Assembly: GCA_032128875.1 (NCBI GenBank)
Contig: JAVLKG010000004.1
Location: 32,001 to 96,000, forward strand
DNA from: Candidatus Melainabacteria bacterium 17Bon1m
GTDB taxonomy: Bacteria; Cyanobacteriota; Vampirovibrionia; Obscuribacterales; Obscuribacteraceae
DNA length: 64,000 nt
Reading direction: 5' to 3'
Position numbers and translations under genes: made by a program. The first letter of the stretch is position 1. Each line of letters starts with the position of its first letter. Below are positions 7,607 to 10,017 of this stretch, piece after piece. The notes under the pieces were generated by a model, which saw nothing but the letters and a program-made list of their open reading frames with translations, ran no database searches and was not told the DNA's origin.

Positions 7607-7897
7607 AATCAAGACTCGCTGCCAGAGTTGTAGCTTCTAAGCTATTTGGTATGCTCTCAAGATAACATTTCCGCATTTGCCACCGCCAGCGTGTCCAATT
7701 TTAGTGGTATCGCACTCGATATCACTTTTGCTGTGGATTGGATATCTGACGCGGATTTCTGGAAACGTATATATACGGAAGTTGGTGGCGTCACCTCTTC
7801 CAGTAGCTGTGCTTTCTAATTGATTAACCTTCACTCAATTTGACGTCAAAAAGGCCTCCATTAGGCCTCCGTGAATAAGAGCAAAGTCTGAAAACCT

Positions 7898-7969
<72 letters not shown>

Positions 7970-8159
7970 ACAGGCTATTCATTATATATGTATGTCCGCA
8001 GAACGAGAACTGACGGCAGCCGGATTTGTAACGCCCGGTTGGCCTGGAAAGCGGGCGCATTGCGGGTGCCTTAGACAGAAATATAACTAGAGATTGTCTT
8101 CTGCAAACTGTTTTGATCTCTTGGTAACCGGGTATAAAGTCTAAGCATAATAAGGTTGG

Positions 8160-8938
8160 AATTTACCGCGAGCGTCAGCAAGTGGTAACCGACCGCCTCA
8201 AATCCAGAAAGCTGGGGCCGGACTGCGAAGGCTTGCTGATGGGACGAGGGAGCAGATGTAGCGTTTAGTCGTTGCGTCGAGCTCTTGTATCCGTGGCAAA
8301 AAGCAGCGATGCGGATTGAGAACGAAGTATATGCAATTGATATTGCGTGTATCTCTTTCTTGTCTTGCGCGTCCGACGGGGCTTTGAATCCCCTGATAAC
8401 ATCAGGGTTTTCAGAACCTGTGCAGCACTCCAGCTCTTGAATTGGCCGAGCGCACTTCCTAGTCAAGTGCGTGTCCTTCGGCTGGCCATCAGCATCCTAC
8501 GTGTCTATGCGTAGGATGCTTTGTGGTGTATATAATTTATCGGCAATGCATATACAATCGCTAGATCCGCGTGTTGAGCCAGTTTTCATGGCTTGTTCAA
8601 ACGATCGGATCGATCATGTGATCGCAGTTTTTCAATACCAGCTTAGCGCTGCGCCTTCGGAAAACCGCATGATTAAAAGAAAAACGGGGTACTTCACACC
8701 GTTGGATGTGCTTGGTATATTGAAAGAGTAAACGGTGAGCGGTTAAGCGAAGTAACCGCTTTGAGCCGAGGGACACTACGGAAACGGCAGATCGGCGCCG
8801 ATCGGAAACGACAGTAGGTGGTTCGCCCCGAGTGAAGGACTGACTGAATCTCGAGGAAATACTGAGCCCACAGCAATGGGCAGTCAGGCAGTAGCTTAAA
8901 CATCGCAGCGGAGCAATCCTTGCGATGTTTTTGTTTTT
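8160..8938 (+). ncRNA. Candidate large (~780 nt) highly structured non-coding RNA of unknown class
   Basis: No credible ORF; many local and long-range helices with G.U pairs on the + strand, GNRA-type loops, CATAAT -10-like box at 8146-8151, terminator at 8898-8938. Confidence 0.7.
8898..8938 (+). terminator. Intrinsic terminator closing the candidate ncRNA
   Basis: AAACATCGCAG-C-GGA-GCAA-TCC-TTGCGATGTTT followed by TTGTTTTT. Confidence 0.8.
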
Positions 8939-8954
8939 GCAGGTTTTTCGAAAA

Positions 8955-9008
8955 GGTTGTGTGTAACACGCCCAAAGAAACACGGTCGACGCATGGCGTC
9001 GACCCTAC
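8955..9008 (-). repeat. GTAG-type REP hairpins (one intact, one degenerate)
   Basis: GGTCGACGCATGGCGTCGACCCTAC at 8984-9008, identical to 31338-31362; degenerate GGTTGTGTGTAACACGCCC at 8955-8973. Confidence 0.85.
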
Positions 9009-9546
9009 AATAGAGACGTGCAAACCTCGCAGCGCCACTGAATATGGTGGCACGGTGAAAACACGTCAAAAAATGACCGGCATATACTTTGGCCGCATCA
9101 AGGCTTGTCGAATATTCGTATATATCTAGATTCGAACTTGTGAATGTTCAAACTTTTCAAAGTTCAAATTTTCCACAAGTTCTATAGATAAACAGTCGAA
9201 TTCTTTAGACTTTTGCTATCTTGAGCGAGCCTGAAAGTGGCTGCCAGTCAAAGACTTAGTTAATTTCATTAATACGAATGAAAAATCCAAACATATTTAC
9301 TCTTATGCCATCAAGGCATCTTTTGATTTCTGATCTTTTATAGATCGAGTATATGTTCGGATCCAGCCAATGTCAAGGAAATCAGACGCCGCGAAAACGC
9401 ATCGTTTCAATGTGTTTTTCGCAGTCAAATCTCATGCACGCGAGCCGGTTTCCTAGTACTTTTTCTCTGTGCACACACTACGTGTGAATTTTTCCAGGAC
9501 TCAGTTGCTGCGCGTATCTGAGTGATATTTGTTGGGAGTGCAAAGC

Positions 9547-10017
9547 ATGAACGTTACTTTGAAAGTGAAGCGTCTTCCTCACTGCAAAAATTTGCCCGCC
9601 TACGCGACAAGCGGTTCTGCTGGTATGGATTTGACTGCGGCCATCGAACAACCGGTAACAGTCGAGCCCAACAAGCGCGCGCAAATTCCAACTGGCATTC
9701 AAGTCGAGATTCCCGAAGGTTTTGAAGGGCAAGTGCGTCCCCGCTCCGGATTGGCTCACAAAGCCGGTATCAGCCTGACCAATTGTGTCGGAACCATCGA
9801 CAGCGATTATCGCGGCGAAGTCTGCGTGCTCATCATCAATCATGGCGAGCAAGCTTACACTTTCCAGCCCGGTGAAAAGATCGCGCAATTGCTCATCACG
9901 CCTGTTCCGCGCGTTGAGATTGTGGAAGTGGAAGAGCTTGCCGCGAGCCACGAACGCGGTGAGGGTGGCTTCGGATCTACGGGAAAGTTGATTCAAGCCG
10001 CAGGAGCTAGGGCTTAG
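9547..10017 (+). CDS. dut: dUTP diphosphatase
   Basis: GSAGMDL, RPRSGLA, GTIDSDYRGE, KIAQL, RGEGGFGSTG; ATG 9547 after GGGAG. Confidence 0.96.
   Translation: MNVTLKVKRLPHCKNLPAYATSGSAGMDLTAAIEQPVTVEPNKRAQIPTGIQVEIPEGFEGQVRPRSGLAHKAGISLTNCVGTIDSDYRGEVCVLIINHGEQAYTFQPGEKIAQLLITPVPRVEIVEVEELAASHERGEGGFGSTGKLIQAAGARA

Follow-up and report, generated by a model that had tools for sequence, protein, structure and literature searches.

We analysed a 64,000-nt stretch of DNA from Candidatus Melainabacteria bacterium 17Bon1m (the window; positions 32001-96000 of contig JAVLKG010000004.1, C4, in a 7.55-Mb assembly of a genome that is 93% complete). A long interval without a credible gene lies between a tRNA-Thr(CGT) gene (7898-7969, − strand; ARAGORN; Rfam tRNA, 71.2 bits) and a dUTPase-like open reading frame (ORF; 9529-10017). 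This interval holds an ORF-free, strongly folding block on the + strand, divergent from the tRNA gene, that spans 8120-8938 with sharp borders. Read 5' to 3', the block contains a promoter-like region (P1, 8121-8151), a structured RNA candidate of ~370 nt that we call X (8158-8532), a spacer with upstream regulatory DNA (8533-8692), an internal promoter-like site (P2, 8693-8721) and a poplar-1 small RNA gene (8729-8938). The first-pass annotation, made from the letters of the sequence, had proposed one ornate non-coding RNA of ~780 nt. Its observations were largely right, its interpretation was half right, and the novelty that it claimed is reduced: one quarter of the element belongs to an established family and its middle part is regulatory DNA, which leaves ~370 nt as an undescribed structured RNA candidate of narrow range.

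We compared 8140-8940 with 40 relatives by BLAST and recovered the full 800 nt in nine of the 12 same-genus genomes, at 83-93% identity; the three genomes lacking the block are only 64-79% complete. In the tRNA-to-dUTPase alignment, mean pairwise column identity was 0.28-0.55 over 8043-8122, 0.56-0.99 over 8123-8922 and 0.18-0.45 over 8923-9082. These sharp borders argue that the block is a discrete conserved unit. Indels among the 10 orthologues were mostly 1-2 nt long, and no ORF of at least 40 aa occupied the same place in all 10, in line with the earlier impression that no credible ORF is present. The + strand of 8160-8938 folded to −302.5 kcal/mol (z = −5.49), a value that none of 20 shuffled controls equalled; the − strand reached −257 kcal/mol (z = −4.75). 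G.U pairs in the orthologue alignment favour the + strand, and compensatory changes were present in the same-genus homologues. A conserved, structured + strand non-coding region divergent from tRNA-Thr, as first described, is thus present at this locus.

The poplar-1 gene and its family

We searched the 64-kb window against Rfam at curated thresholds and ran a further search at E up to 10 on 7800-9600 and 8150-8740. At the curated thresholds there were only two matches, tRNA and poplar-1 (RF03041, listed in Rfam as Gene; sRNA). The poplar-1 match lies on the + strand at 8760-8898 (134.7 bits against a cut-off of 110.5; E = 5.2e-30), fits the whole model with all of its nested helices (positions 1-141 of 141) and departs from it by just two non-standard pairs. 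The permissive search gave no covariance-model match to GOLLD, ROOL, OLE or HEARO in either interval. It gave none to RNase P RNA, tmRNA, 6S RNA, SRP RNA or introns, which the first reading had also been unable to recognize here; RNase P RNA and 6S RNA were both found on contig C7 (256.2 and 48.4 bits).

We assessed covariation in 144 distinct poplar-1 copies (the window copy and 143 unique sequences from 158 found). Six of the seven RF03041 helices had pairs changed on both sides, with 92-99% of cells paired; helix P4a was 99.5% paired, without change on both sides. The pairing of CTGACTG with CAGTCAG (8840-8846/8881-8887), first picked out by eye, is a pseudoknot inside poplar-1. It was 99.8% paired, compared with 12-46% for slid controls, and two of its positions switch together (G-C in 116 copies and A-U in 24; A-U in 101 and G-C in 29). 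The helix AGCGGTTA/TAACCGCT at 8738-8760, also seen at first reading, forms the 5' hairpin P0 of the gene and covaries in the same set. The terminator placed at 8898-8938 was confirmed as a hairpin (8900-8907/8921-8928) with an inner stem (8910-8912/8917-8919) and a T-run (8929-8938), and both stems covary across the 144 copies. The terminator scan skipped this hairpin and T-run because the loop is longer than 8 nt. Compared with RF03041, the conserved unit here is larger: it adds a promoter module, P0, a covarying pseudoknot beyond the nested structure line and a terminator conserved in sequence. The family match, the covariation and RNA-library contigs together define the gene on the + strand, with a 5' end that we infer to lie at 8729.

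The genome carries eight poplar-1 copies, among which the window copy has the lowest score; it is the sole one preceded by X and the sole one with the 5' ~600 nt. We aligned the eight copies and observed common sequence from ~210 nt 5' of the model through the end of the terminator (~8547-8938 in the window). A TATAY-GATCG block is followed by a GATCCGGCGCTTGTTAAC-like block and by GGGGTAsTT with a variable spacer; then come a −10-like TAnAnT and, after 7-8 nt, ACGGTGAGC, which opens the 5' hairpin. The distance from GGGTA to GGTGAG was 45-47 nt in 106 of the 122 scorable copies. In the window, the promoter-like site P2 (+ strand) consists of TTCACA, 17 nt and TATATT with a TG (TGgTATATT), with GGGGTAC upstream, and scored 10 of 12 matches in the promoter scan. 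Its hexamers were invariant and its 17-nt spacer variable across the 10 orthologues and G015, a genome of another genus. The same promoter-like module was called directly 5' of poplar-1 (1540-1568) in L042, a locus from the genus of G050 and G051.

The + strand spacer at 8533-8692 carries, from ~8547 onwards, two blocks, TATAC-ATCG and GCTTGTT, together with GATC sites. Paralogue alignment, GATC enrichment and a weak fold mark it as upstream regulatory DNA common to poplar-1 genes. The 196 nt of 8533-8728 folded with z = −1.01, and 36 of 200 shuffles folded equally well. The RNAalifold consensus fold of this middle part (alignment columns 457-600, 10 orthologues) was −7.7 kcal/mol on the + strand and −14.3 kcal/mol on the − strand; the corresponding values for the poplar-1 part were −72.0 and −59.1 kcal/mol. 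A helix proposed between 8629-8637 and 8718-8726 did not hold up in the alignment, where one of its pairs was kept in two of 10 orthologues and another in seven. GATC occurred upstream of 147 poplar-1 copies at a mean of 2.5 per 260 nt (1.2 expected) and at fixed positions, and this region may be a module for control by binding or by methylation. Relative to the region in which ACGGTGAGC starts, the sites lie at ~−180, −140 to −120 and −80 (8547-8692 in the window; loci L028-L030, L061-L175 and L187). HIP1 palindromes were rejected as the cause of the GATC cluster, since GCGATCGC was not enriched (two in the window, 2.47 expected). Sigma-54 and NtcA-type readings of the GGGGTAsTT block were also set aside, by eye only, because the spacings are off the consensus.

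We next considered whether poplar-1 could be a 5' leader or a 3' untranslated region element and rejected both, because several copies are convergent to their neighbours or lie on the opposite strand. One copy (L030) sits between two genes on the strand opposite to both. With its own promoter-like module and terminator, poplar-1 is, on the sequence evidence, an independent small-RNA gene and not a cis element.

To place the family in its class, we surveyed a sample of 150 other genomes. Poplar-1 was present in 29 of the 30 sampled genomes of the window's family and in both of those from a sister family of the same order (31 of 32), at 1-10 copies per genome, and in none of the 118 sampled genomes from nine other families. 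Record titles give the order of the window's relatives as Candidatus Obscuribacterales. An exact-pattern scan of GTDB genomes returned at least 115 stretches, and the titles of 80 of them were mostly Candidatus Obscuribacterales, Obscuribacteraceae, Obscuribacter or Melainabacteria, in agreement with the first-pass annotation, which had suggested Melainabacteria. As judged from these genomes, the family maps to Obscuribacterales. Among the matches listed, 10 poplar-1 contigs stand under other labels of metagenome-assembled genomes (L067, L073, L078, L083, L088, L092, L096, L098, L102 and L132), including Bryobacterales, Actinobacteria, Planktothrix, Oculatellaceae, Flavobacterium psychrophilum, Alphaproteobacteria and delta proteobacterium. 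Contigs labelled outside Melainabacteria are probably mislabelled or mis-binned Obscuribacterales DNA.

To our knowledge, the family was described from metagenomes, with no known host. The motif is reportedly from Weinberg et al. 2017; the word 'poplar' does not occur in the main text of that paper (PMC5737381). No literature was found that joins 'Obscuribacter' with 'small RNA'. In the literature available to us, a single paper was found to name poplar-1, a drinking-water metatranscriptome study that reports its enrichment, along with that of other small RNAs, in intracellular RNA (10.1101/2025.10.18.683149).

The 5' structured part, X

X has no Rfam match at E up to 10 (8150-8740) and, by BLAST, no second copy in the genome. 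A diverged poplar-1 copy was considered and rejected, because no second poplar-1 match appeared at E up to 10. The 3' part is not new, being covered by RF03041, and 8158-~8530 is undescribed, with no match in Rfam.

Conservation jumps from 0.28-0.55 to 0.90 at ~8123, within the promoter-like region P1 (TTGGTA, 19 nt, CATAAT; + strand). The CATAAT box at 8146-8151, noticed in the first-pass annotation, is invariant in all 10 orthologues. P1 was not called by the promoter scan because the nearest −35-like hexamer, TTGGTA at 8121-8126, is 19 nt away. Transcription from P1 would probably start near 8156-8160.

X itself was delimited on the + strand by fold energy, consensus fold and covariation, with a putative 3' end at 8532. 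Its predicted structure opens with a hairpin (8163-8169/8182-8188) and the C-rich linker CCGACCGCC, after which helix 8211-8217/8428-8434 closes a multibranch domain. Hairpins lie at 8255-8278, 8324-8355, 8391-8407 and 8444-8483, and the 3' side consists of a terminal hairpin (8491-8520) and TTTGTGGTGTAT. Folded alone, 8158-8532 had a minimum free energy of −161.7 kcal/mol (z = −6.11), equalled by none of 100 shuffles; the reverse complement gave z = −3.17. The RNAalifold energy over the 10 orthologues was −119.6 kcal/mol on the + strand and −62.2 kcal/mol on the − strand.

The consensus of X contains 128 pairs and was 97.3% paired, compared with 31-45% for slid controls. We observed changes on both sides in seven pairs and 17 cells, and the cell count was reached by none of 500 shuffles. 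The best-supported helices are 8163-8169/8182-8188, 8255-8263/8270-8278, 8324-8337/8342-8355 and 8391-8397/8401-8407. One pair of the long-range helix 8211-8217/8428-8434 is G.U in four sequences, A-U in three and G-C in three; helix 8444-8457/8465-8483 has three pairs with changes on both sides, and one pair of helix 8485-8503/8508-8527 is U-A in five sequences and C-G in four. Three hairpins that had been found by eye (8391-8407, 8450-8472 and 8491-8520) show compensatory pairs in the orthologues. A helix drawn between 8173-8183 and 8231-8241 does not survive, its middle pairs being kept in only two, three and five of the 10. A pairing of the 5' TTTACCG with CGGTGAG is compatible by eye and competes with the conserved 5' hairpin.

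We then assessed the range of X. In a BLAST search of 8120-8760 against 104 family genomes, 8120-8660 was found in nine same-genus genomes only, and two short pieces matched in G015. An exact pattern of the X start was found in seven of the 12 other same-genus genomes, the window's own genome, G015 and G051. One further match (G106) lies in apparent coding sequence with no poplar-1 nearby and was dismissed as a chance site; the remaining 92 family genomes had no match. A metagenome scan with the 5' motif of X yielded at least 119 loci; among those listed, none had a downstream poplar-1 core, and they were likewise rejected as chance matches. An nhmmer search with a genus profile of X recovered only its two ends from G015 and a weak 3' segment from G050 and G051, and had no hits at the other syntenic loci.

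The divergent arrangement of poplar-1 and tRNA-Thr(CGT) is syntenic in six further loci of five other genera. The tRNA and the poplar-1 model are separated by 790 nt in the window (genus g1), 351 nt in G056 (g32), 392 nt in G114 (g11), 747 nt in G051 (g30), 748 nt in G050 (g30), 820 nt in G014 (g3) and 1088 nt in G020 (g9). The gaps of 351 and 392 nt have room just for the shared upstream module and none for X. In G020 and G014, small ORFs apparently take the place of X, as judged by eye. G050 and G051 start as X does (CTCTTGG..., a −10-like box, GGTTGG, a hairpin ACCGC...GCGG and CCGAC), and the hairpins that follow differ from those of the window's X; the corresponding region of G051 had no Rfam match at E up to 1. 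G015 has an X-like start and an X of similar length, with no adjoining tRNA within the locus. The promoter region and 5' hairpin of X thus recur in two other genera, which gives a range of three genera by sequence comparison. Since starts recur and bodies differ, X combines a conserved promoter region and first ~45 nt with a fast-changing body. On present genomes, X is single-copy and confined to a few genera of Obscuribacteraceae.

One transcript or two

We consider it fairly probable that the block holds two tandem + strand RNA genes, X and poplar-1, with a ~780-nt read-through isoform likely as a minor product. The first gene would be X, a single-copy structured non-coding RNA of ~370 nt (~8158 to ~8530) made from the conserved promoter-like region divergent from tRNA-Thr. 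The second (~8729 to 8938) would be a standard member of the multicopy poplar-1 family, with its own sigma-70-like promoter module, 5' hairpin, pseudoknotted core and intrinsic terminator. Some X transcripts probably reach the poplar-1 terminator and yield a minor ~780-nt species, because the strong hairpin at the 3' end of X is followed by no more than an imperfect U-tract.

RNA-library runs were available as assembled contigs, which inform on presence and bridging and not on ends, strand or level. Libraries X2 and X4 are RNA libraries of a sample that may be the source of the DNA, X17 is an independent wastewater metatranscriptome and X18 is a lake metatranscriptome. In X2, one contig covered 7933-9015 at a depth of 118.5; in X4, depth was 47.7 over 7933-8513 and 155 over 8498-9012. 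The contigs of these two libraries over 7933-9015 had 2-6 times the depth of the flanking contigs. In X17, two 157-nt contigs covered 8741-8884 at depths of 629 and 781; one of them matches the window exactly and the other shows 11 differences. A 263-nt, window-identical contig of the same library covered 8223-8485 at a depth of 2.1, and the flanking genes had a depth of 0. In X18, contigs covered 8116-8276 (seven differences each) and 8821-8936. Both X and poplar-1 therefore occur in RNA libraries, and where abundance can be judged the poplar-1 core greatly exceeds X. The gaps in cover at 8486-8740 (X17) and 8277-8667 (X18) are absence of cover only and were not used as evidence. Adapter letters were joined directly to 8741 (X17; two contigs from two strains) and to 8498 (X4; 8 extra letters), and these joins may be frequent fragment ends or artefacts.

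Several observations weigh against two separate genes, or against X as we describe it. Besides the limits of assembled contigs, flanking genes were present in X2 and X4 at a depth of 22-33, so these libraries contain DNA or background. An X18 contig without differences (8668-8850, depth 12.6) spans P2, as does the 7933-9015 contig of X2, and transcripts that cross P2 may therefore exist. Within the genus there is no canonical terminator between X and P2, and the tail TTTGTGGTGTAT was not called by the terminator scan. G015 had neither a called promoter-like site nor a + strand terminator-like site. The covariation in X comes from 10 closely related orthologues (81-92% identity with the window over 8120-8760), the tested structure had itself been taken from their alignment, and 29 of 500 shuffles reached the seven-pair count. 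For these reasons we regard the covariation support for X as real but modest.

The bridging contigs also fit a single functional RNA of ~780 nt, a 5'-extended poplar-1 variant of this genus that carries X as an extra domain, with the short form either processed from it or made in parallel. Such an RNA would account for conservation at 0.56-0.99 with sharp borders over the entire 8123-8938 and for the lack of a strong terminator between the two parts. It could also draw on the long-range arm proposed in the first-pass annotation (8311-8316/8565-8570 with 8327-8335/8547-8555). Over 8311-8335/8547-8570 this arm stayed paired in 59 of 60 cells, and in 70 of 70 for the first seven pairs. All of this pairing was maintained through G.U changes only, RNAalifold prefers the local hairpin 8324-8337/8342-8355, and the 3' strand of the arm lies inside a motif that paralogues without X keep as well. 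The window copy retains the internal promoter module of the seven copies that lack X, and the spacer shows no structure. In G051, from the same genus as G050, terminator-like sites lie between X and poplar-1 (~330-400 nt 5' of poplar-1; L042, 1197-1216 and 1249-1266), where the scan found four sites against 1.1 expected. The X17 depths are very unequal. We therefore think that a single functional RNA is unlikely. In its original form, as one new GOLLD/ROOL-like RNA, it is not supported, given the absence of any large-RNA match, the identity of the 3' 140 nt as poplar-1, the internal promoter-like module and the unstructured middle.

X could also have no function as RNA, with transcription from P1 across P2 tuning this poplar-1 copy by transcriptional interference or promoter occlusion. 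X does lie directly 5' of the poplar-1 regulatory region and is co-oriented with it, and across genera it is poorly conserved except for its promoter and first ~45 nt. Within the genus, however, conservation of X equals or surpasses that of the neighbouring dut gene in many 40-nt bins, and X has a strand-specific consensus structure with compensatory pairs. Interference alone would not select for structure, and we judge this explanation to be quite improbable. That X is decaying sequence, a pseudogene or mobile-element remnant with helices by chance, would suit its narrow distribution and is very improbable in view of its fold (z = −6.11; 0 of 100 shuffles equal), sharp conservation borders, twofold strand asymmetry of the consensus fold, lack of ORF remnants or a second genome copy, and the same promoter and 5' hairpin in three genera.

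Possible functions and surroundings

Given two tandem genes, we asked what kind of RNA each might be. Poplar-1 resembles multicopy small-RNA families such as Qrr and RsmX/Y/Z in having 1-10 copies per genome, a common upstream module with a terminator, and high abundance in a metatranscriptome. It differs from them in that no CsrA or Hfq gene was found and in forming a compact pseudoknotted fold instead of a series of GGA hairpins or a linear seed. A CsrA sponge of the CsrB/RsmZ type, suggested by six GGA motifs seen by eye, was rejected on 0 matches to PF02599 in the 93%-complete genome, and an Hfq-dependent base-pairing small RNA on 0 matches to PF17209 in the same genome. Our guess is that poplar-1, an RNA both abundant and compactly folded around its pseudoknot, works in trans, most likely by binding a protein. 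Because it is compact, pseudoknotted, multicopy, co-regulated and abundant, such a role would suit it better than that of a base-pairing small RNA.

X shares with GOLLD, ROOL, OLE and HEARO a long, ORF-free, multibranch fold, and with GOLLD a position next to a tRNA gene; GOLLD often adjoins tRNA genes. It departs from these RNAs in that the new structured part is ~370 nt and not 600-800 nt, in that there are probably two genes, and in its narrow range of three genera. In many regulatory RNAs the conserved part is the functional part. X might be a lineage-specific trans-acting or scaffold RNA whose functional end is the conserved 5' hairpin with the C-rich linker, which is again a guess. A bolder possibility, which we hold only tentatively and think doubtful, is that X is the first example of a novel class of large, structured RNAs acting jointly with poplar-1, either as the linked 5' domain of a ~780-nt RNA or as a separate partner docking on the same particle. 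The tRNA-Thr locus would then be the ancestral 'master' copy of poplar-1 in Obscuribacteraceae.

Poplar-1, catalogued as an orphan small RNA, is now tied to Obscuribacterales, non-photosynthetic relatives of cyanobacteria. Its genes emerge as a multicopy family sharing one promoter architecture, and its structure gains the 5' hairpin, the pseudoknot and a terminator that is itself conserved. What poplar-1 does can now be asked in terms of the factor that recognizes the shared upstream module and the protein that binds its pseudoknotted core. X adds a structured RNA candidate of ~370 nt without a family, in a lineage for which no earlier RNA biology is known to us. Given its narrow range, the gain from X is moderate and not large.

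Poplar-1 genes occur in varied neighbourhoods. In G099, nine copies are convergent to tandem genes, and six of the eight ORFs scanned there are Ser/Thr kinases. At this locus (L187; G099:C8:163000-182999), the nine poplar-1 genes lie on the opposite strand and alternate, with a period of ~2.25 kb, with tandem ORFs of 572-636 aa; a seventh ORF of kinase size lies outside the scanned set, and the poplar-1 terminator directly adjoins the stop codon of the ORF before it. The genome of the window has four poplar-1 genes within 13 kb around unrelated genes (L028; G000:C1:136500-154500). The ORFs there include one of 344 aa with no Pfam family, one of 360 aa with a weak PspA-like match only, and one of 2915 aa with GH94 and glycosyltransferase domains that resembles cyclic beta-1,2-glucan synthase. 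In another genome, four poplar-1 genes lie head to tail at a spacing of 500-870 nt, with no room for protein genes (L047; G017:C1:2646436-2649503).

Downstream of the poplar-1 terminator and outside the RNA, a REP-like hairpin repeat lies at 8984-9004 (no strand assigned). Its 9-bp stem is perfect (− strand: GGTCGACGC CAT GCGTCGACC), and it is a dispersed repeat with 84 genome copies at up to two mismatches (control pattern, 0). RNA- and DNA-library contigs end or branch at this hairpin. Further on, 9243-9376 forms a conserved block (0.72-0.89) inside the otherwise variable spacer 5' of the dUTPase gene. A strong promoter-like site on the − strand, at 9376-9348 (TTGACA-17-TATACT, 11 of 12 matches), may drive another small transcript towards the REP-like hairpin.

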